Of a stretch of 64,000 nt of DNA, positions 41,131 through 61,894 are shown in pieces. The stretch is from a virus. Positions within the stretch are counted from its first letter, which is position 1. Every line of letters begins with the position of its first letter. The stretch spans positions 1 to 64,000 of IMG/VR virus record IMGVR_UViG_3300042402_002055; one strand, written 5' to 3'. The notes beneath the pieces were generated by a model. That model was not told where the DNA came from, searched no databases, and saw only the letters and a list, made by a program, of their open reading frames with translations. A program made the position numbers and the translations under genes.

Positions 41131-41160
41131 TTTGTAAATCAAAATATTTTTAGTATATTG
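41131..41160 (+). promoter_or_regulatory. Bacteroidota-type promoter
   Basis: TTTG-N19-TATATTG. Confidence 0.6.
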
Positions 41161-41166
41161 TAGGGT

Positions 41167-42438
41167 ATGAATCTAATTGAAGATAAACGTACCCTACTTT
41201 CGTTTTTAGGGGGTAATGTAAATATTGACCTTATCATTCCTGTATGGAGTTCTCATAGAGCACATCCGTTGGGGAATCGTTTGTCTTTTATATATTTTAG
41301 ACAAATCAATGGTGAAGATGGTATAATCAATTTCAATCACATAGATGCAAAGAAATTAGACAAATTCGACATATCAAAAATAGTCCATGTAAATACATTA
41401 GTTTTAGACAATAGGTATTTAAAGACCATAGGATTGGATTATGAGTGGGTATACTTTGAAGAGAATGGGAAACCATTTATCTTTAATGAAGTCGTAGAAT
41501 CGGTTTATAGAGGGTATAGAAACGACTTTAAGGAGTTGAATGATTGTGTACCTTTAATGAAGTGGTTGGAAATACTTAGAACAATCCCAAATATCAGTAC
41601 AAGACAAGATTGGTATAGAAAATATACATCAGCAATCAACATATTGGGAAGGCTGGAAGGGGCTGGGGTAAAAGTCGTAGAAGAAAAATTTATTGATAGT
41701 TTTACATTCAATCCACAATACATCAAAAAGGGTGGTATCGTTTACACACAATATAATCCATATACAACAACCGGCAGACCATCCAATCGTCATCTTAATG
41801 TCAACTACTCTGCGTTAAACAAATCCGATGGTACGAGAGAAATGTTTATTAGTCGTCATCCACACGGAACCCTAATTCAATTTGACTATGAGTCGTATCA
41901 CATTCGTTTGATTGCAAAAATGGTTGGGTATGAGTTTCCAACGGGTACAACGGCCCACCAACACCTTGCAAACCTTTATGGGTGTGATATAGAGACGGCA
42001 AAGAAAATAACCTTTACATACCTTTATGGGGGATTAGACGATAATGCTCGACAAATACCATTCTTTCAAAAGGTCGATGAATACATTAAGGAATTATACC
42101 AAAGGTTCGTCATTTCGGGAAAATTAACGACACTCTTATATAAAAGAGAAATACCATTCCATAGAATTGAGAGTGCCAACGAACAAAAGGTATTCAACTA
42201 TTTACTACAATCATTAGAGACTGAAATCAATTATATGAAGATTGGTGAGGTATTGGAGTATTTGGAGGGGAGAATGTCAAAAATGATACTTTATACTTAT
42301 GATGCCTTTCTTATAGACACACATCCTATTGAAAGAGAAAATCTTTTAAACGACATTAGAGAGATAATGGAGAAGGGTGGTTTTCCGGTAAAAATCGAAG
42401 AAGGAGAGAATTATAACAATTTAGAGGTTATAAGTTAA
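41167..42438 (+). CDS. Divergent family A DNA polymerase (polymerase domain only)
   Basis: TTTGRPSN; motif A FDYESYHIRL; motif B AKKITFTYLYGG; motif C YTYDAFLID. Confidence 0.75.
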   Translation: MNLIEDKRTLLSFLGGNVNIDLIIPVWSSHRAHPLGNRLSFIYFRQINGEDGIINFNHIDAKKLDKFDISKIVHVNTLVLDNRYLKTIGLDYEWVYFEENGKPFIFNEVVESVYRGYRNDFKELNDCVPLMKWLEILRTIPNISTRQDWYRKYTSAINILGRLEGAGVKVVEEKFIDSFTFNPQYIKKGGIVYTQYNPYTTTGRPSNRHLNVNYSALNKSDGTREMFISRHPHGTLIQFDYESYHIRLIAKMVGYEFPTGTTAHQHLANLYGCDIETAKKITFTYLYGGLDDNARQIPFFQKVDEYIKELYQRFVISGKLTTLLYKREIPFHRIESANEQKVFNYLLQSLETEINYMKIGEVLEYLEGRMSKMILYTYDAFLIDTHPIERENLLNDIREIMEKGGFPVKIEEGENYNNLEVIS

Positions 42439-50561: not shown

Positions 50562-50876
50562 ATGACAAAAACAGCAGACAAATTAGCAAAACCATTAGGA
50601 GACAGAGTTCTTTTAACGGAATTAGAAGCAGAGGCTTCAAAAACTGCCGGTGGTATTATCATTCCAGATAGTGCAAAATCGGAAGATGTAAAGAGAGCAA
50701 GAGTAGACGCAGTAGGTGATGGCCTATTCACACAATCAGGAGTAGCAATTCCGATGAGTGTAAAAGTAGGTGATGAAGTAATCCTTCCACCATATCATCA
50801 AGGAGTAGAAATTAAAGTAGGTGGAAACAAATACATCTTACTTAGAGAATCAGAATTATTAATGGTTATTAGATAA
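50562..50876 (+). CDS. groES: GroES-family co-chaperonin
   Basis: KPLGDRVL...KTAGGIIIPDSAK...VKVGDEV...LLRESELL. Confidence 0.95.
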   Translation: MTKTADKLAKPLGDRVLLTELEAEASKTAGGIIIPDSAKSEDVKRARVDAVGDGLFTQSGVAIPMSVKVGDEVILPPYHQGVEIKVGGNKYILLRESELLMVIR

Positions 50877-54431: not shown

Positions 54432-54600
54432 AGATGATAAGGAATTATATTATTTGGAAAATGGTAAAGTGGTGTTCACTCCTGAGTATCACCTTCAACG
54501 AGGTGATTGCTGTGGGAGTGGGTGCCGCCATTGTCCATATATTCCAGTTGGTATAAAAGGAAATAAAAATACAAAACAAAAACAAAATGGTAACAGTTAA
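54418..54600 (+). CDS. Small Cys-rich protein (DUF5522-like)
   Basis: VFT..YHL.RG.CCGSGCRHCPY; start uncertain (GTG 54418 or 54403). Confidence 0.7.
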   Translation: MKLNKDDKELYYLENGKVVFTPEYHLQRGDCCGSGCRHCPYIPVGIKGNKNTKQKQNGNS

Positions 54601-54850
54601 AAAATTCTCAGCAGTATGGTGTGGCCCTTGTAGGGTGTTAGCACCGGTAATGAACGAAATCAAAGGAAATTTCTCAAATGTAAAGTTTGAAGAATATGAT
54701 ATTGACGAATATAGTGAAGTAACCGAACAATATGGAGTCCGTTCAGTTCCAACAGTAATTATCGAAAGAGATGGTGTTGAACTACAAAGGTTTACAGGAC
54801 TTTCATCTAAAATGGCATATACAAACGCAATCAATGAGGCAGTAAAGTAA
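54587..54850 (+). CDS. trxA: Thioredoxin
   Basis: WCGPC active site; VRSVPT. Confidence 0.95.
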   Translation: MVTVKKFSAVWCGPCRVLAPVMNEIKGNFSNVKFEEYDIDEYSEVTEQYGVRSVPTVIIERDGVELQRFTGLSSKMAYTNAINEAVK

Positions 54851-54851
54851 A

Positions 54852-54883
54852 TTTGGTATTGTGAGAAAAATTAGTTATATTAG
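54852..54883 (+). promoter_or_regulatory. Bacteroidota-type promoter for the HTH-Mom-Mom operon
   Basis: TTTG-N20-TATATTAG; implies the real start is ATG 54888. Confidence 0.6.
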
Positions 54884-54887
54884 ACAT

Positions 54888-55091
54888 ATGAAATTAGTAG
54901 GTGAATTACATCCAATGCATAAACTGACTGAAGAACAGGTATTGCAAATTAGGGAACTATATAAAATAGGTCATAGAAATATTAATGTAATAGCTAGGAA
55001 CTATGGAGTATCATCAGCTAATATAAAAAAAATAGTTACAAACGAAACATGGAAACACATGGTTAAGTGGCCATATGAAAGTACAAGATAA
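54888..55091 (+). CDS. Stand-alone HTH DNA-binding protein (resembles the C-terminal domain of HNH endonucleases)
   Basis: GELHPMHKLTEEQV..IR...IARNYGVS..NI..I...ETWKH. Confidence 0.7.
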   Translation: MKLVGELHPMHKLTEEQVLQIRELYKIGHRNINVIARNYGVSSANIKKIVTNETWKHMVKWPYESTR

Positions 55092-55842
55092 ACAATATTG
55101 TGATACTTCCAAGTTTAGTGTAAGGTTAATAGAAAAGTCGGTTGCAAAGAATATAATAGTAAAATATCATTATTCTAAACAATGGACAAAAGTTAGTTAC
55201 GCATTGGGATTGTTCTACGAAAACGACACCGAACATAAATTCTTTGGTGGAGTAAATCAGGAACTAATTGGAGTGATTTGTTATGGTGACCCGATTGGTA
55301 GACATTGTGGAGCATCTATAAGTGAAACATTGGATAGAACGGAAGTGATGGAATTAGTAAGACTTTTTGTATTTGACGGTTATGGTTGTAACATTGAAAG
55401 TTGGTTTGTCGGAAAGTCTTTTGAATGGTTAAAAGAAAACGCAAAACAAATAAGAGCACTGATATCATACTCCGACCCTGTGCAAGGACATAAAGGTCAA
55501 ATATATCAGGCAACAAATTGGTTATATCAAGGAACAAGTATTAGACCTAATGACACATGGTCTTTTCGTTTTGAAGAAGGTGGTAAATGGATACATGGTA
55601 GAACTATGGCACCTTATTGGGGAACAACCTCACCTTTCAAATTACAAGAACTTATTGATAAACCATTTTGGGTAAAGAGAGAACCAAAGAAACATAGGTA
55701 TATCTACATTTTGGGCAAGGATAAAAAAGATAAAAAGGAATTATCAAAAAACATAAAACATCCTTTATATCCATACCCAAAAACATTAGAGAAATATACC
55801 GAAGAAATATTAAAATTAGAACCAATTGAAAGAGTTAAATAA
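55075..55842 (+). CDS. Mom-family (GNAT-fold) DNA modification protein, copy 1
   Basis: HYS, LIGV.CYG.P, ELVRL, N.ESWFVG.S and LISYSD...H.G.IYQATNWLYQG motifs. Confidence 0.75.
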   Translation: MKVQDKQYCDTSKFSVRLIEKSVAKNIIVKYHYSKQWTKVSYALGLFYENDTEHKFFGGVNQELIGVICYGDPIGRHCGASISETLDRTEVMELVRLFVFDGYGCNIESWFVGKSFEWLKENAKQIRALISYSDPVQGHKGQIYQATNWLYQGTSIRPNDTWSFRFEEGGKWIHGRTMAPYWGTTSPFKLQELIDKPFWVKREPKKHRYIYILGKDKKDKKELSKNIKHPLYPYPKTLEKYTEEILKLEPIERVK

Positions 55843-56629
55843 GTTATATTGTGATACAAGTAGAGTATCGGTTAGAGAAATAAGCAGTTCAGTTGCAAAA
55901 GAAATTATAGTTAAGAAACACTATACACATGCATGGACTGCGTGTAGATATTCATTGGGTATCTTTTACAAAACTGATGAGTCAAATGCATTGGGTGATA
56001 ATGATAAACTAATTGGATGTTTAGTGTATGGATTCCCAGTAGGTGCAAGAGCTGCAAATTCAGTTTCAGATTCAATTACAAAAGATAACATTTTAGAATT
56101 GACACGATTGTATTGTGATGATGGATATGGTTCAAACATTGAGTCATATGCGTTAGGACAATCGTTTAAGTGGTTTAGAGAAAATGATAAAGCAATTAAA
56201 ATCTTAATCTCATACGCAGATAACGGACAAGAACATTTAGGAGGTATTTATCAGGCAACGAATTGGATTTATCAAGGAATGAATACCGATATTGCATTGA
56301 TGCCAAATTACGGAATATCACTTTCAAATGACCCTTACAAATGGATTCATAGCAGAACTGTGTTTTCAATGTGGGGTAGTGGTAATTTGGAACATCTTAG
56401 GAGAGAAATTGGTAAACAGGGATATAAAGAGTTTTGGAGAAGAGAAGAACCACCAAAACATAGATACATACAAGTATTGGGTGCAGACAAAAAAGAAAAA
56501 AGAGAATTACTTAAAACTCTAAAACACGACCCAAAGTCATATCCAAAAGATACACGTGAATTTAATAAGGATATAGAAATCCATACTACAATTGCACCTG
56601 AAACCGAACTTGCAAGTAAGTTTTGGTAA
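55826..56629 (+). CDS. Mom-family DNA modification protein, copy 2 (TTG start)
   Basis: KHYT, ELTRL and ILISYAD..QEHLGGIYQATNWIYQG motifs. Confidence 0.75.
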   Translation: MKELNKLYCDTSRVSVREISSSVAKEIIVKKHYTHAWTACRYSLGIFYKTDESNALGDNDKLIGCLVYGFPVGARAANSVSDSITKDNILELTRLYCDDGYGSNIESYALGQSFKWFRENDKAIKILISYADNGQEHLGGIYQATNWIYQGMNTDIALMPNYGISLSNDPYKWIHSRTVFSMWGSGNLEHLRREIGKQGYKEFWRREEPPKHRYIQVLGADKKEKRELLKTLKHDPKSYPKDTREFNKDIEIHTTIAPETELASKFW

Positions 56630-56653
56630 TTTGAATAATTTTTAGTATATTAC
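56622..56653 (+). promoter_or_regulatory. Bacteroidota-type promoter
   Basis: TTTG-N20-TATATTAC. Confidence 0.6.
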
Positions 56654-56657
56654 ATAT

Positions 56658-57833
56658 ATGAATAAATTTTGGGATACAGGCAATGAGCCTAAAAAATCAG
56701 ACGGATTTGATTTTGAAAAAAATAAAAGAGAGTTACTTGAAAATTTAGACTATCTAATGGGTATGTCAGTACAAGAACAAACCCTCTATAAGAAGTGGGT
56801 AGAATGGAATCAGGATTTACATGGTAGTATGAAATTACTTCCTGCATTACACCAACAATACGATAAGATTTGGGAACCCACAGACATATTGGATTATGAT
56901 AAAACTGTAAAGGAAATACAAGAACTAGAACCATTTGTTGAATTGGTAGAAGATGGTGAAGCAACTCGTTGGACACATATGAGAAAGTTAATTTCCTCAA
57001 TGGAATTCAGTGCAAATCCAGGTCGTAATGTTAAAGCATTTGTGAAAGACAGAAAATCAAATAAAATATTAGGTGTTATTTCATTGGGTTCGGATATTAC
57101 AAGTTTGGGTGTTAGAGATAATTTTATAGGTTGGAAAAAAGAAGATAAATTTCAAAATGGTAAATTAAATAACACCACAATCGGAACATCCATTATAGCA
57201 ACACAACCATTGGGTTATAATTTTTTAGGTGGTAAATTGGTCGCAGCATTAACTACATCTCCTGTTTTTAGAAAACAATGGAAAGAAAAATACAATAATA
57301 TTTTAATTGCAGTTGGAACTACTGCCTTATATGGTGCAAGTTCTCAATACAATGCAATTCCACATTTTAAAACATTAGGTGAAAGTAAAGGTTTAATTAA
57401 CATTAAACCAGATGATAAGTATTATGATATTTGGCATCAATATGTTAAAAATTTAGACCCAGTGTGGTATGATAAAGCGATAAACTCCACGGGCCCAAAA
57501 CAAAATGTTTTAATGAGAGTTTTTAAAGAAATCGATGTTAAGGCTTCTCTTTATAATCATGGTTTTAAGAGAGGTGTATATTTTGCACAAATGTATGAGA
57601 ATGGTAATGATTATCTATGTTCTAAAATTGATGAGGATAAATTGATAATGAAACCAAAGTTTGTACAAGGTGACGAATATACAATCAAATGGTGGAAAGA
57701 TAAGGCAATAAAAAGATATACAACATTACATAGTGAAGGAAGATTAAAATCGGAAAAGTTATTTTATGCTGACATCATTGGAATGACATGGGAAGAATGT
57801 AAAGAAAAATATTTAAAAGAAGTGGGAAGATAA
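56658..57833 (+). CDS. DUF4338 / Druantia DruA-like protein
   Basis: PGRN...VKD....KILGVISLGS....L.VRD.FIGW, QPLGYNFLGGKL.A and TT.LYG..SQYN motifs. Confidence 0.7.
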   Translation: MNKFWDTGNEPKKSDGFDFEKNKRELLENLDYLMGMSVQEQTLYKKWVEWNQDLHGSMKLLPALHQQYDKIWEPTDILDYDKTVKEIQELEPFVELVEDGEATRWTHMRKLISSMEFSANPGRNVKAFVKDRKSNKILGVISLGSDITSLGVRDNFIGWKKEDKFQNGKLNNTTIGTSIIATQPLGYNFLGGKLVAALTTSPVFRKQWKEKYNNILIAVGTTALYGASSQYNAIPHFKTLGESKGLINIKPDDKYYDIWHQYVKNLDPVWYDKAINSTGPKQNVLMRVFKEIDVKASLYNHGFKRGVYFAQMYENGNDYLCSKIDEDKLIMKPKFVQGDEYTIKWWKDKAIKRYTTLHSEGRLKSEKLFYADIIGMTWEECKEKYLKEVGR

Positions 57834-57834
57834 T

Positions 57835-60390
57835 ATGTATCAAAATATATTTTACGAAAGAGCAAAAAATCTCATGCACTTGTGGGATGACAAAAATGGA
57901 TATCAAACAATGCCATACCGAAAGTATGCGTATAAAAAAGACCCACAAGGACAGCATCTTTCAATGAATGGAGAAAGACTTACAAGAATTTCAAAATGGG
58001 AAAAAGAAGACAATGATGACTTATTTGAAAGTGATGTTCCAGAAACAACAAGAGTGTTAGTGGATATTTACGATAGTGATATTCCTTCGAATGGACATAG
58101 AGTATTGACTTTTGACATTGAGGTTGAAATGATATCAGGACTCCCAAACACAAAAGAAGCACAAAACGAACTGACAGCAATTGCAGCACATGATGGTGCA
58201 ACTAAATTGTATGATGTATTCGTATTAGACAAAGACAAAATAGTTAAAAATAATGCCAAAAACTTTAATAAAGATGGGAGAGAAGTTACTCTACACATTT
58301 TCGATAACGAGAAAAATCTCTTACTTGCTTTCCTTAATTATTACGAGGAAATTGACCCGACTATTCTTACGGGATGGAATATAGATTTCTTTGATATTCC
58401 GTATTTGTATAATCGTATAAAAAATGTATGTGGAGAAGGCCATGCAAAAAGACTTTCTAGAATAGGACAATGTTTCTATTCACCATATAGAGAGAAATGG
58501 TCTTTTGGTGGTGTATCAATTTTGGATTACATCAGTTTATACAAACAATACAACTTTGGACTAGAAAGTTCATACACATTGAACCACATCGCAACAAAAG
58601 AATTGGGTAGAGGCAAAGTTGAGTATGAAGGAAGCTTGGATGATTTATTTGTAAATGATTTAGAAAAGTTTATTGAGTATAATATTGTCGATGTGGACTT
58701 AGTGGTATCAATGGATGAGAAGTTAAAGTTTATTGATTTATGTCGAGCTATATGTCACGCCGGTTATGTTCCTTATGAAGATTATATGTTTTCGTCAAAA
58801 TGGTTAGAAGGAGCTTGTTTAGCATATCTTAAAACTAAAAATATGGTTGCAACAAACAAACCGGCCGATAGGAGAGAGAGAATGCAAGCATTGAAAGATA
58901 ATGACCAAGAAAAGTTTATTGGAGCATATGTAAAAGAACCCATCGTTGGTAAGTATGATTGGATTTATGATTTGGATTTGACATCACTATACCCATCAAT
59001 CATTATGACCCTAAATATCAGTCCTGAAACAAAGATTGGTAAGATTTCAAATTGGGATGCAGAACAATATATCAAAGGTGAGGAAATCACTTATAAGTTA
59101 AAGGGTAAGGATGGTGATGAATACGAATACAATCGTCAGGAATTAGCAGATGTTATTAAAGATAGTAATTTGGGTGTAGCAGCCAATGGAGTCCTTTATA
59201 TGCAAGATAAACCAGGTTTGATTGCGGATATCCTTAACACATGGTTTAACAAAAGGGTTGAATATCGTAAATTAGAAAAGAAATATGGTGAGGAAAAAAA
59301 TACCGAATTATATGAGTTCTATGGTAAGAGACAACACGTTCAAAAGATTCTATTGAACTCAATGTATGGTGTATTAGGATTACCTGCATTCCGTTTCTAT
59401 GATGTGGATAACGCAGAGGCAGTAACCCTAACAGGACAAGTAGTAATTAAAAAGACGGCTGAAATGGCAAATAGAAAATATTGGAAAGAATTAGAAACAA
59501 CTGACGACTATAATGTTTATATTGATACCGACTCAATTTATATGATGGCAGAACCTTTGGTAAAACATAGATACCCAGAATATAAGACATTTGATGAAAA
59601 GAGGATGGCAGTTGAAGTGGATAACATTGCAACCGAAACACAAACATTCTTAAACTCATTCTACGACTTATTGGCAGAGAGATTTTTCTTTATTCCAAAA
59701 GATAAACATAGATTTGAGATTAAAAAGGAATATATCAGTAAAGCAGGATTTTGGGTAGCAAAGAAACGATATGCACAATGGATGATTTTGAAAAACGGAA
59801 TACCTTGTGATAAGTTGGATGTTAAAGGTTTGGATGTAGTTAGAAGTTCATTTCCAAAAGCATTCCAAAAGTTTATGTCGACAATGTTGAAAGATATTCT
59901 AATGGGTAAAGACCATGAATATATAGATGATACTCTATTGACATTTAAGAAAAGTTTACCAACACTACCTGTAAATACAATAGCAAAAGGTGGAGCATTA
60001 AAAGAATTGAGTAAATATGATAATGGTAGTTGGAAACCTGGAAATGCAGTAGCAAATTTTGAGAAAGGAACACCTGCACACGTTAAAGCCGGAATAACAT
60101 ATAATAGATTATTAAAATTCTTTAATTGTCCATATAAGCATGAACCAATTAGAGATGGTGATAAAGTAAAATGGGTATATCTTAAAGACAACCCATTAGG
60201 ATTAGAAACAGTTGCATTCAAAGATTATAATGACCCAAAAGAAATTATGGATTTTGTGGAAACCTATGTGGATAGAAACAAAATATTTGAAGCAGAATTA
60301 GAAAACAAATTAGATGACTTTTATAACGCATTAAAGTGGGATAAAGTTACCGCAGATACAAAAACAGCAAAAAAGTTTTTCGCATTTTAA
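57835..60390 (+). CDS. Family B DNA polymerase (gp43-like)
   Basis: FDIE and GWN..FFD exonuclease motifs; DLTSLYPS, KILLNSMYG, YIDTDS, KKRY. Confidence 0.97.
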   Translation: MYQNIFYERAKNLMHLWDDKNGYQTMPYRKYAYKKDPQGQHLSMNGERLTRISKWEKEDNDDLFESDVPETTRVLVDIYDSDIPSNGHRVLTFDIEVEMISGLPNTKEAQNELTAIAAHDGATKLYDVFVLDKDKIVKNNAKNFNKDGREVTLHIFDNEKNLLLAFLNYYEEIDPTILTGWNIDFFDIPYLYNRIKNVCGEGHAKRLSRIGQCFYSPYREKWSFGGVSILDYISLYKQYNFGLESSYTLNHIATKELGRGKVEYEGSLDDLFVNDLEKFIEYNIVDVDLVVSMDEKLKFIDLCRAICHAGYVPYEDYMFSSKWLEGACLAYLKTKNMVATNKPADRRERMQALKDNDQEKFIGAYVKEPIVGKYDWIYDLDLTSLYPSIIMTLNISPETKIGKISNWDAEQYIKGEEITYKLKGKDGDEYEYNRQELADVIKDSNLGVAANGVLYMQDKPGLIADILNTWFNKRVEYRKLEKKYGEEKNTELYEFYGKRQHVQKILLNSMYGVLGLPAFRFYDVDNAEAVTLTGQVVIKKTAEMANRKYWKELETTDDYNVYIDTDSIYMMAEPLVKHRYPEYKTFDEKRMAVEVDNIATETQTFLNSFYDLLAERFFFIPKDKHRFEIKKEYISKAGFWVAKKRYAQWMILKNGIPCDKLDVKGLDVVRSSFPKAFQKFMSTMLKDILMGKDHEYIDDTLLTFKKSLPTLPVNTIAKGGALKELSKYDNGSWKPGNAVANFEKGTPAHVKAGITYNRLLKFFNCPYKHEPIRDGDKVKWVYLKDNPLGLETVAFKDYNDPKEIMDFVETYVDRNKIFEAELENKLDDFYNALKWDKVTADTKTAKKFFAF

Positions 60391-60392
60391 TT

Positions 60393-61139
60393 ATGAAAAG
60401 TTTAAATTTTTGGAAACCAGAAGGATTTGACATTGCCAGTTATAAGTGGCACCTAAAGGAAAGAGTAGATAAAGAAATATTAGGAAATGGTTCCGATGTA
60501 GGGAGTTGTTATTACACTTTCAATGAATTGGGATTTAGAGGAGACTCACCAAAAAAGAAAGGAACTAGAGTAATGTCCGTTGGTTGTTCACACACCGAAG
60601 GAATTGGTGTCCACAATCATCAAACTTGGTCACATTATTTGACTAGGAGCATGAAGTCCGCAGTTGATTTAAACTTAGGAATAAGTGGAAGGAGTAATGA
60701 TTATATTTCCAGAACAATAATATCATGGACAGATTATCTTAATCCTGATTTGGTTTTAGTGATGTACACATACCCACATAGAAGAGAATTTTATAGAGAA
60801 ACAGGTGAAGTTGAGCCATATCATCCAAATCCTTGGGGATACTTTGATGAGGATAAAGAAGGTAGAATGGTATGGGCAAATAAAATTGCCTCATCAAACG
60901 ATTCGGAAGATTTTATCAATTGGTATAAAAATCACCAACTAATAACTTATTTTTTGAAATCAAAAGAAATTCCTTTTATTTGGAATGGAACATTTGTTGG
61001 AACCGATTACACCGATGAAAATAGATTTGATGGTGATTACCCAAATTTACCAGACTCACATAGTCATGCATCCCCACAACAAAATGAGATATATTCCAAA
61101 AAACTTTTAAATCATATCAAACAAAATTTTGAAATTTAA
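60393..61139 (+). CDS. SGNH-hydrolase-like phage protein
   Basis: VGCSHTEG, NLGISGRSND and a C-terminal D..SHAS. Confidence 0.6.
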   Translation: MKSLNFWKPEGFDIASYKWHLKERVDKEILGNGSDVGSCYYTFNELGFRGDSPKKKGTRVMSVGCSHTEGIGVHNHQTWSHYLTRSMKSAVDLNLGISGRSNDYISRTIISWTDYLNPDLVLVMYTYPHRREFYRETGEVEPYHPNPWGYFDEDKEGRMVWANKIASSNDSEDFINWYKNHQLITYFLKSKEIPFIWNGTFVGTDYTDENRFDGDYPNLPDSHSHASPQQNEIYSKKLLNHIKQNFEI

Positions 61140-61180: not shown

Positions 61181-61894
61181 ATGAACAAAAACAATTTATT
61201 AAAATTTATTCAAAAGTATTCATTGGGTGGACTTATTGAATCAGTAGCATGGAATGCAGAAGGAACAAAGTTATCAGTTAGATTTATTTCAGATGACAAA
61301 ACATTATTAGGTGAAGTAGAGTTTAACGCTTACACATCAACATCAATGAATGTGGGTATTTACACAACATCATTATTGAAAAATATGATTGGTGTATTAG
61401 ACAACGATTTAACATTAAAAGTTGATAAAGCAGGTGATAAATCGGTATCATTAAAGTTATCGTCTGACGAAACTGAAACATCTTATCAATTAGCAGACTT
61501 AGGAGTTATTCCACCTGTACCAGATTTGAAAGCATTGCCTGATTTTGGTATTTCAATTGATATGGCATCTAATATGATTGACAAATTTATCAAAGCAAAA
61601 GGTGCATTGAGTGATGTAGATACTTTCACAATCTTTACCGAAGCTGGTGATTTGAAGATGGCAATTGGTTATTCTTCTATCTCTACAAACCGAGTTACAT
61701 TTACTGCACAAAAAGATTACGCAGAAACAGTAAAACCAATTTCCTTCTCAGCAAAGTATTTGAAAGAAATCTTAACTGCAAACAAAGAAGCAACATCAGC
61801 AAAGTTAAAAGTTTCAACCGATGGTTTATCGAATGTTGAATTCCAAATTGATGACTTTGTGTGTAAATATTATTTAGTAGAAATTTCAAACTAA
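61181..61894 (+). CDS. Sliding clamp (gp45/PCNA-like)
   Basis: 237 aa with two-domain size, C-terminal VEF...CKYYLV; lies between PolB and the clamp loader. Confidence 0.75.
   Translation: MNKNNLLKFIQKYSLGGLIESVAWNAEGTKLSVRFISDDKTLLGEVEFNAYTSTSMNVGIYTTSLLKNMIGVLDNDLTLKVDKAGDKSVSLKLSSDETETSYQLADLGVIPPVPDLKALPDFGISIDMASNMIDKFIKAKGALSDVDTFTIFTEAGDLKMAIGYSSISTNRVTFTAQKDYAETVKPISFSAKYLKEILTANKEATSAKLKVSTDGLSNVEFQIDDFVCKYYLVEISN

Follow-up and report, generated by a model that had tools for sequence, protein, structure and literature searches.

The first 64,000 nucleotides (the window) of the 118,406-base IMG/VR record IMGVR_UViG_3300042402_002055, for which CheckV estimates about 63% completeness, belong to an uncultured T4-like myovirus. 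In its replication operon lie five successive genes, encoding a small helix-turn-helix (HTH) protein, two paralogs of the phage Mu DNA-modification enzyme Mom (Mom1 and Mom2), a protein of the DUF4338 family that includes DruA of the Druantia type I defence system (the DruA-like protein), and a family B DNA polymerase (PolB). With about even confidence, this region is read as a variable DNA-modification island in which independent DNA modifiers, organised as separate modules, are made together with the replisome. The order of the five genes had been proposed from the letters of the window (the sequence-only reading), and it is borne out by the open reading frames (ORFs), by Pfam with PHROGs in agreement, and by PADLOC models (Table 1).

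Mom1 and Mom2 are true but diverged members of the Mom family. Both exceed the curated PF25680 cut-off of 27.1 bits (Mom1 149.0 bits, 1.8e-43; Mom2 146.3 bits, 1.2e-42) and match phrog_1384 (5.3e-51 and 1.8e-46, respectively), and against the sequence of 8bv8, the crystal structure of Mu Mom, Mom1 scores E 3.9e-7 and Mom2 E 2.6e-5. The evidence on fold comes from a model of Mom1, Mom2 being placed by sequence. In a search of 48,161 chains, the AlphaFold model of Mom1 (pLDDT, the predicted local distance difference test, 85.6) finds 8bv8_B as its best structural match, with a Z score of 19.8, a root-mean-square deviation (rmsd) of 2.9, and 181 of 202 residues aligned, which places it 7.4 Z units ahead of the runner-up GNAT at Z 12.4. 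As judged by alignment, Mom1 follows Mu Mom across the Mom-specific HTH-like insertion (Mu ~175-209), which activity requires, up to a C-terminal PYPK, and the Mom1 model shows two helices here, 175-182 and 187-193.

Mu Mom, according to the main text of Silva et al. (Nat Commun 2026, PMC13219725), moves glycine from Gly-tRNAGly to the N6 of adenine in double-stranded DNA after replication, with an on-base rearrangement thereafter. R111, S124, and R151 are essential there, and importance also attaches to H58, Y59, Y159, W181, and W48, the last a residue of the dimer (PMC13219725). Mapping of these residues through HMMER alignments to 8bv8, in which the chain index is the native number minus 9, finds equivalents of H58, Y59, R111, S124, D149, Y159, and W181 in both paralogs, invariant or nearly so in 18 orthologues. 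The essential R111 and S124 fall in the aligned motifs ELvR/ELtR and NIES of both paralogs, with R96 and S109 invariant in the 18 orthologues. Mom1 and Mom2 are 46% identical to each other, and their orthologues split into two distinct groups. The ratio of nonsynonymous to synonymous substitution rates (dN/dS) is 0.02-0.09 for Mom1 against close relatives, 0.15-0.23 for Mom1 against more distant loci, and 0.03-0.13 for Mom2. Both Mom lineages are old, retained, and under purifying selection.

The DruA-like protein scores 74.5 bits (1e-20) against PF14236 (DUF4338), for which the cut-off is 27, and 2.2e-23 against the PADLOC model DruA1. Its predicted structure, obtained with 67 diverse homologues as input (pLDDT 94.6, predicted template modelling score 0.91), begins with a helical region, continues with the GNAT core (residues 86-321, approximately), and closes with a second helical region at the C-terminus. 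The top structural match in the PDB is again Mu Mom 8bv8, with Z 10.6, rmsd 3.7, and 168 of 202 residues aligned to model residues 86-321, followed by AAC(6')-Ib at Z 9.4 and then by about 48 GNAT-type entries at Z 8-9.2. Fifty chains reach a Z of at least 8, and the entries listed are overwhelmingly GNAT-type acyltransferases aligned over residues 86-333. As far as the model goes, the GNAT fold is firm, and the likeness to Mom is a lead. The structural kinship with Mom that the sequence-only reading had called for is strong for Mom1 and weak but top-ranked for the DUF4338 protein.

Residues that are invariant or nearly so in the DruA-like family are G139, S145-D146, R153, W159, Q183-P-x-G186, G191-G192-K193, T221-T222, Y231, R305-G306, and W346, of which G139, K193, Y231, and W346 are invariant in all 67 sequences. 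In their pattern, these positions look like those of an active enzyme. Classical GNATs bind acyl-CoA through motif A, Q/R-x-x-G-x-G/A, after strand beta-4. In the model of the DruA-like protein, strand 173-181 is followed by Q183-P-L-G186-Y-N188, in which N takes the place of the final G or A; the Q is found in 62 of the 67 sequences, the G in 65, and the N in 54. The Q183-x-x-G186 part of this loop is presumed here to resemble motif A.

A search of 1.84 billion representative proteins with the DruA-like protein returned 1036 matches, and 34 longer ones were scanned by Pfam. Eight of the 34 carry an N-terminal ParB_N domain (seven above the cut-off), one a UDG domain, one DUF3102, and seven C-terminal homing-endonuclease domains. 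ParB_N and UDG are DNA-handling domains and thus point to DNA as the target of the DruA-like protein, while the homing-endonuclease domains show that its gene is targeted by mobile endonucleases, as are other conserved phage replication genes. For the ParB_N-DruA fusion P0150, no relative was found in viral contigs, and the fused form was not found in cultured phages. Passages in three sources touch on the family: DUF4338 is classed with the GNAT domains and reported in fusion with DndF in certain proteins (PMC10853773, from Aravind's group), a cyanophage DUF4338 homologue is reported to be structurally similar to Mu Mom (PMC12801897), and DruA-like proteins are noted in six Synechococcus phages (Phold preprint, 10.1101/2025.08.05.668817). 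Among metagenome proteins, the DruA-like protein has 2628 matches. Giant viruses also encode homologues, as seen in BFVD for Faunusvirus (E 7e-20), Yasminevirus (2.5e-14), and Dasosvirus (5.8e-9).

The five genes appear to form two transcription units. The motif TTTGG-N19-TATATT occurs six times in the window (20702, 40300, 46191, 47397, 54852, and 56622), each time on the plus, coding strand, where 0.22 +/- 0.46 copies are expected from 100 shuffles; the last two copies, P1 and P2, stand at the two places where promoters had been proposed. Further copies occur in the 118-kb record at 41131, 65798, and 92939, and the motif usually ends 6-8 nucleotides (nt) before an ATG. A looser form has 23 matches in the record against 5.3 +/- 2.0 in shuffles and precedes at least seven gene starts. 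By these counts, the recurrent phage motifs are real, with P1 predicted to head the HTH-Mom1-Mom2 unit and P2 the DruA-PolB unit. The TTTG ... TAnnTT shape presumably recalls the promoters of Bacteroidota. The short distance from motif to ATG suggests leaderless or nearly leaderless messages and, since the GTG at 54861 lies inside P1, makes the ATG at 54888 the likelier start of the HTH gene. A generic sigma-70 scan gave no excess over chance in the region (52 sites against 45.7 +/- 6.5), and a single terminator-like site was found in the region, fewer than the 3.4 expected.

Within the first unit, the HTH and Mom1 genes overlap by 17 nt, as do those of Mom1 and Mom2, and the two junction sequences are alike, which suggests translational coupling and a duplication that took in the junction. 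In the second unit, the DruA-like stop codon TAA (57831-57833) lies 1 nt from the PolB ATG, just as the sequence-only reading had it. The small HTH protein has weak matches (HTH_7 in Pfam, 1.7e-3; HEase in PADLOC, 1.2e-3) and in PHROGs resembles the C-terminal HTH of HNH or homing endonucleases (7.9e-6). Its gene is kept in relatives upstream of Mom1, of Mom2 (locus L047), or of DruA (locus L028), and a search for this HTH among longer proteins gave a single match, of 157 amino acids.

Gene order was compared in 80 IMG/VR loci recovered with the DruA-like protein, and in all 80 its gene stands among replisome genes or nearly so. In 49 loci it lies directly upstream of PolB (layout A); of these, 30 have at most 30 nt between the two genes, 6 have 400-700 nt, 12 have about 1.1 kb, and 1 has more than 2.5 kb. 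In another 26 loci it lies between the clamp and clamp-loader genes (layout B). The remaining five are unclassed, four for lack of downstream sequence and one (L024) showing none of the reference genes. Both Moms are present in 33 of the 36 layout-A loci with at least 2 kb of upstream sequence. Among the 12 informative layout-B loci, 5 carry a short Mom of 203 amino acids between PolB and the clamp (PF25680, 4.7e-34) and 7 carry no Mom. The DruA-like homologue lies between gp44 and gp62, the clamp-loader genes, in the cultured cyanophages S-SCSM2R and S-SSM7, and within 7 kb of the clamp gene in the Pelagibacter phages Mosig and HTVC008M. A PF25680 gene occurs in only one of these four complete cultured genomes, about 70 kb away. 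The DUF4338 gene is therefore not sporadic, its position beside PolB or between clamp and clamp loader holding in 75 of 80 loci. Its link to replisome genes is old and general, whereas its link to Mom is specific to this clade. In S-SSM7, a tRNA-Gly gene (L089 9022-9092) lies inside the gp45-gp44-DUF4338-gp62-gp43 module.

The inserts of about 1.1 kb between DruA and PolB encode a glycosyltransferase-like protein of about 370 amino acids that stays below Pfam cut-offs, to which one locus adds a GmrSD_N-like protein. These inserts, which adjoin the DruA-like gene or lie upstream of PolB, are found at 7226-8338 of L048, 7326-8867 and 8871-9983 of L059, 776-1909 of L030, and 7220-8341 of L080. 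No homologue of the glycosyltransferase-like protein was found in the 118-kb record that contains the window.

The DruA-like gene is also set apart by its alleles. Close relatives are 95-99% identical to the window in the ribonucleotide reductase (RNR), 97-99% in Mom1, and 93-99% in the clamp, while identity of the DruA-like protein in those same relatives falls into classes of 92-95, 73-74, 69-70, and 65-67%. At the nucleotide level, identity is 69-74% in all three thirds of the DruA ORF only, and the flanks stay at 84-99% (loci L003-L023). Synonymous divergence (dS) is 1.1-1.3 in the DruA-like gene against 0.15-0.6 in the flanks, with dN/dS of the swapped gene at 0.18-0.24 and of the DruA-like gene overall at 0.06-0.24. 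Across 1176 pairs from 49 loci, the Spearman correlation of identity is 0.37 for DruA and the clamp and 0.90 for PolB and the clamp, and DruA identity ranges from 60 to 100% among pairs whose clamps are at least 95% identical. The DruA-like gene thus exists as old alleles that recombination trades between genomes and purifying selection constrains. Such a pattern marks an arms-race or specificity gene and not a housekeeping component of the replisome. A milder form of the identity drop is seen in the 3' third of Mom2.

Some proteins of the operon share a feature at their C-termini. In T4 and RB69, clients of the sliding clamp, such as gp43, carry C-terminal aromatic tails. All 60 PolB orthologues end in (K/Q)FFxF, and all 46 Mom2-type orthologues end in (K/N)FW, with F266 and W267 invariant; in the window, both PolB (KKFFAF) and Mom2 (KFW) follow this pattern, and each tail is strictly conserved after a variable linker. 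Mom1 ends in KLEP-type tails. Among Mom1, Mom2, and the DruA-like protein, Mom2 alone appears to carry a conserved aromatic tag, by which it may be held at the fork.

The scheme of DNA modification proposed from these results has two units. In the first, the phage promoter would drive the small HTH protein and both Mom paralogs, whose translation is coupled. As homologues of Mu Mom, the paralogs most likely each draw an aminoacyl group from a charged tRNA (glycyl-tRNAGly in Mu) and, once the phage DNA has been replicated, would attach it to the N6 of adenine in the duplex, blocking the restriction enzymes of the host. These old paralogs most likely have different donors or target contexts, and Mom2 is perhaps tethered at the fork through its polymerase-like KFW tail. 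In the second unit, the second copy of the promoter would drive the DruA/DUF4338 GNAT-fold acyltransferase together with PolB. The DruA-like protein would be a third, independent acyltransferase, made with the replisome and acting on nucleic acid, probably on DNA; its alleles are traded as are those of an arms-race gene. Mom1, Mom2, and the DruA-like protein probably protect the phage DNA from host restriction, and a DNA chemistry other than momylation is possible. Coupling to the replisome had also been proposed; it is seen in gene order and in the likely co-transcription, and in these only.

Several points weigh against this reading. To begin with, all of the proposed chemistry is drawn from homology, and a GNAT fold leaves the acceptor unspecified. 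The lead of Mom over generic GNATs is marginal for the DruA-like protein, at 1.2 Z units against 7.4 for Mom1. Foldseek of its model against the PDB gave no match at E <= 1e-3, the weak top matches all being acetyltransferases, and alignment of the DruA-like family (67 sequences) with the Mom family (18 sequences) by hhalign gave a probability of 2.6%, which is no profile link. In addition, BLASTP of Mom1 against the DruA-like protein found no match, phmmer against PDB sequences found none below E 0.5, a Mom protein ranks only 30th among BFVD matches to the model (E 5e-2), and matches in the ESM Atlas are to its own family only. Thus, the DruA-like GNAT could instead acylate a protein, a charged tRNA, or a small molecule, disarming a host defence or tuning the replisome, and its place in the operon would then reflect early expression only. 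Most GNATs act on proteins or small molecules, the swapping of alleles fits any counter-defence gene, and the presumed likeness of the Q183-x-x-G186 loop to motif A would agree with such a role. However, the fusions to ParB_N, UDG, and DndF point to DNA, and the place among replisome genes is kept in very distant T4-like phages. An acceptor other than DNA is therefore possible but doubtful.

Another set of points concerns the Mom pair. At the position of the Mu-essential R151, Mom1 has V and Mom2 has G, the alignment from D149 to Y159 being free of indels; in none of the 18 aligned sequences is this position R, and an invariant His stands three residues further on. The Mu dimer residue W48 is S in both paralogs. 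With these residues replaced, the donor, product, target, or oligomeric state may differ, or activity may be altered. The tails are a further point: the DruA-like protein lacks an aromatic C-terminal tag, 82 of 82 sequences ending in a structured VGR, and an adjacent aromatic pair occurs in the last four residues of 5 of the 138 ORFs of the record, which against a background of 2.7% per four-residue stretch is no enrichment. It could be argued that Mom1 and Mom2 form one heterodimeric enzyme, in which one paralog serves binding or regulation, instead of having two specificities. Mu Mom is an obligate dimer whose W48A monomer is nearly inactive (main text of PMC13219725), the two genes here appear translationally coupled, and the Mom1 type occurs alone in no sampled locus. 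Yet both paralogs retain all of the conserved catalytic positions, neither has the W48 of the Mu dimer, and the Mom2 type stands alone in L047, L050, L061, and L066 and so needs no partner. A single heterodimeric enzyme is therefore unlikely.

The replisome-adjacent order could also mark a hot spot for accessory genes and not a function, since relatives insert glycosyltransferase-like, GmrSD_N-like, and unknown ORFs at the same junctions. The sequence-only reading had suggested that the three proteins may build a multi-step or multi-specificity modification; in the multi-step form they would act serially on one base, for example by aminoacylation followed by acylation of the new amine. Three GNAT-type acyltransferases are linked in nearly all informative layout-A loci, and the glycyl-derived group that Mu Mom leaves on the base could in principle be extended (main text of PMC13219725). 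The multi-step form is nevertheless unsupported. The DruA-like protein occurs without Mom in three of the four cultured phages, in the seven Mom-free layout-B loci, and in L028, and relatives with the Mom2 type alone exist. Mom is far commoner than the DruA-like protein (331 against 31 phage records), the swapping of DruA alleles leaves the neighbouring Moms 97-99% identical, and the Mom and DruA-like genes lie behind separate promoters. A serial pathway is thus distinctly improbable, and separate modules in a variable island are favoured. That the DruA-like protein, being of the same family as Druantia DruA, was copied from a host as a decoy or inhibitor of Druantia type I immunity is very improbable, given its catalytic-looking core under purifying selection, the deep roots of the family in phages together with the giant-virus homologues, and the failure to find other Druantia parts in the record, about 63% complete.

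Compared with Mu Mom, the paralogs share the family (PF25680), the GNAT fold, probably with its Mom-specific additions, seven retained residues, and the expected role of modifying N6-adenine after replication against restriction. The activity taken to define the family is the formation of N6-carbamoylmethyl-adenine in double-stranded DNA from an aminoacyl-tRNA donor. They are, however, only about 26-30% identical to it and do not keep R151 and W48, and they are ancient tandem paralogs in place of the single gene of Mu. The Mu mom gene is a late gene under Com/C/Dam control, whereas Mom1 and Mom2 stand in a replication operon behind a promoter of early or middle type, with the small HTH gene in place of Com and a conserved KFW tail on Mom2. 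The DruA-like protein shares its sequence family with DruA of Druantia type I, but it stands alone in a phage without DruB-E, appears to be co-transcribed with PolB, and has extra N- and C-terminal helical regions. In Druantia type I, DruA is encoded with DruB-D and the DruE (DUF1998/MZB) helicase; here its neighbours are Mom2 and PolB, and no match to MZB (PF09369) was found in the 118-kb record, about 63% complete. The DUF4338 genes of cyanophages and pelagiphages are homologues at 26-31% identity and likewise lie among clamp, clamp-loader, and polymerase genes; unlike the gene in the window, which follows two Moms directly upstream of PolB, they are found at gp44-gp62 or near the clamp, usually with no Mom in the genome. 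The T4-like gene cluster 1216 and ORF152 of S-SCSM2R, annotated as 'methylcarbamoylase mom', are also DUF4338 homologues of the DruA-like protein. With the clamp clients of T4 and RB69, PolB and Mom2 have strictly conserved C-terminal tails in common, but Mom1 and the DruA-like protein lack such a tail, and the tails here are known from sequence.

Already in print are the mechanism of Mom, the placing of DUF4338 among GNAT domains, and passing mentions of cyanophage DruA-like genes. Tandem Mom paralogs, linkage to the replisome, allele swapping, and a clamp tag on Mom were not found in the literature, the supplements of PMC13219725 aside; in the main text of that paper the word 'paralog' is absent, and 'tandem' occurs only in the reference list.

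Table 1. Positions of the island and its adjoining features, numbered from the first letter of the window.
Feature	Position	Strand	Description
Thioredoxin ORF	54587-54850	+	From the ORF list
P1, promoter-like motif	54852-54881	+	TTTGG-N19-TATATT; ends 6 nt before ATG 54888
Small HTH protein	54888-55091 (ATG, 67 aa); longer GTG frame from 54861	+	First gene of unit 1
Mom1	55075-55842	+	Mom-family GNAT, 255 aa
Mom2	55826-56629	+	Mom-family GNAT, 267 aa, TTG start
Mom2 C-terminal KFW tail	56618-56626	+	After variable linker; resembles PolB tail KKFFAF
P2, promoter-like motif	56622-56651	+	TTTGG-N19-TATATT; ends 6 nt before DruA-like ATG 56658
DruA/DUF4338-like	56658-57833	+	GNAT-fold protein, 391 aa
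PolB	57835-60390	+	Family B DNA polymerase, T4 gp43-like; DNA_pol_B 4.3e-35; C-terminus KKFFAF

All genes of the region lie on the plus strand, and the surroundings agree with the sequence-only reading, Pfam and PHROGs placing RNR and thioredoxin upstream of the five genes and the clamp (61181-61894), dUTPase, and clamp loader downstream. Elsewhere the record encodes the gp23 capsid protein, gp19 tail tube, tail sheath, gp32, and a RecA/UvsX homologue, and its replication genes comprise a DnaB-type helicase, class II RNR, thioredoxin, family B polymerase, clamp, and clamp loader. One restriction-modification-like system was also considered for the window and ruled out, no nuclease gene having been found in 54.8-60.4 kb. 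Between PolB and the clamp, an ORF of 248 amino acids (60393-61139) matches only DUF6071, and that weakly; some close relatives (e.g., L006, L008, and L011) have the ORF and others lack it, which makes it another variable slot of the operon. An ORF of 423 amino acids at 41167-42438, preceded by a TTTGT variant of the promoter motif, holds a partial DNA_pol_A domain (41.2 bits) in the same phage as the full family B polymerase.

Outside the window, positions 106636-111038 of the record hold an array of 17 tRNA genes, including tRNA-Gly(UCC), along with a gene for tmRNA. Since Mu Mom draws on Gly-tRNAGly, a tRNA-Gly carried by a phage is noteworthy, yet tRNA arrays are common in large phages. 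Auxiliary genes at record positions 84044-87322, 87438-89057, 82787-83522, and 111052-112168 encode a TonB-dependent-receptor-like outer-membrane protein (CarboxypepD_reg and beta-barrel), GroEL, NifU/IscA-type Fe-S assembly proteins, and heme oxygenase with bilin reductase, and GroES lies in the window at 50562-50876. The TonB-dependent-receptor-like type hints at a host among the Bacteroidota.

It was only in 2026 that the chemistry of Mu Mom was solved, as an aminoacylation of DNA that depends on tRNA. An abundant uncultured aquatic clade of T4-like phages with two diverged Moms, minus one residue essential in Mu, is a place to seek new donors, targets, and products. The DruA family is an unexplained part of Druantia type I immunity, and here it appears as a conserved gene of a replisome operon; its GNAT fold, nearest to Mom among the structures, together with the ParB_N and UDG fusions allows the testable guess that DruA marks DNA. 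A wider reading, put forward tentatively and with the chances against it, would join these threads. DUF4338/DruA would be a second Mom-related family of DNA-acylating GNATs, made with the replisome in T4-like phages, whose swapped alleles provide different specificities or donors; bacterial DruA would be the self-marking (modification) arm of Druantia type I; and Mom2 would ride the sliding clamp through KFW, marking new DNA as it is copied. Swapping of alleles at the DruA-like gene alone, in otherwise near-identical genomes, is a clear signature of an arms race.

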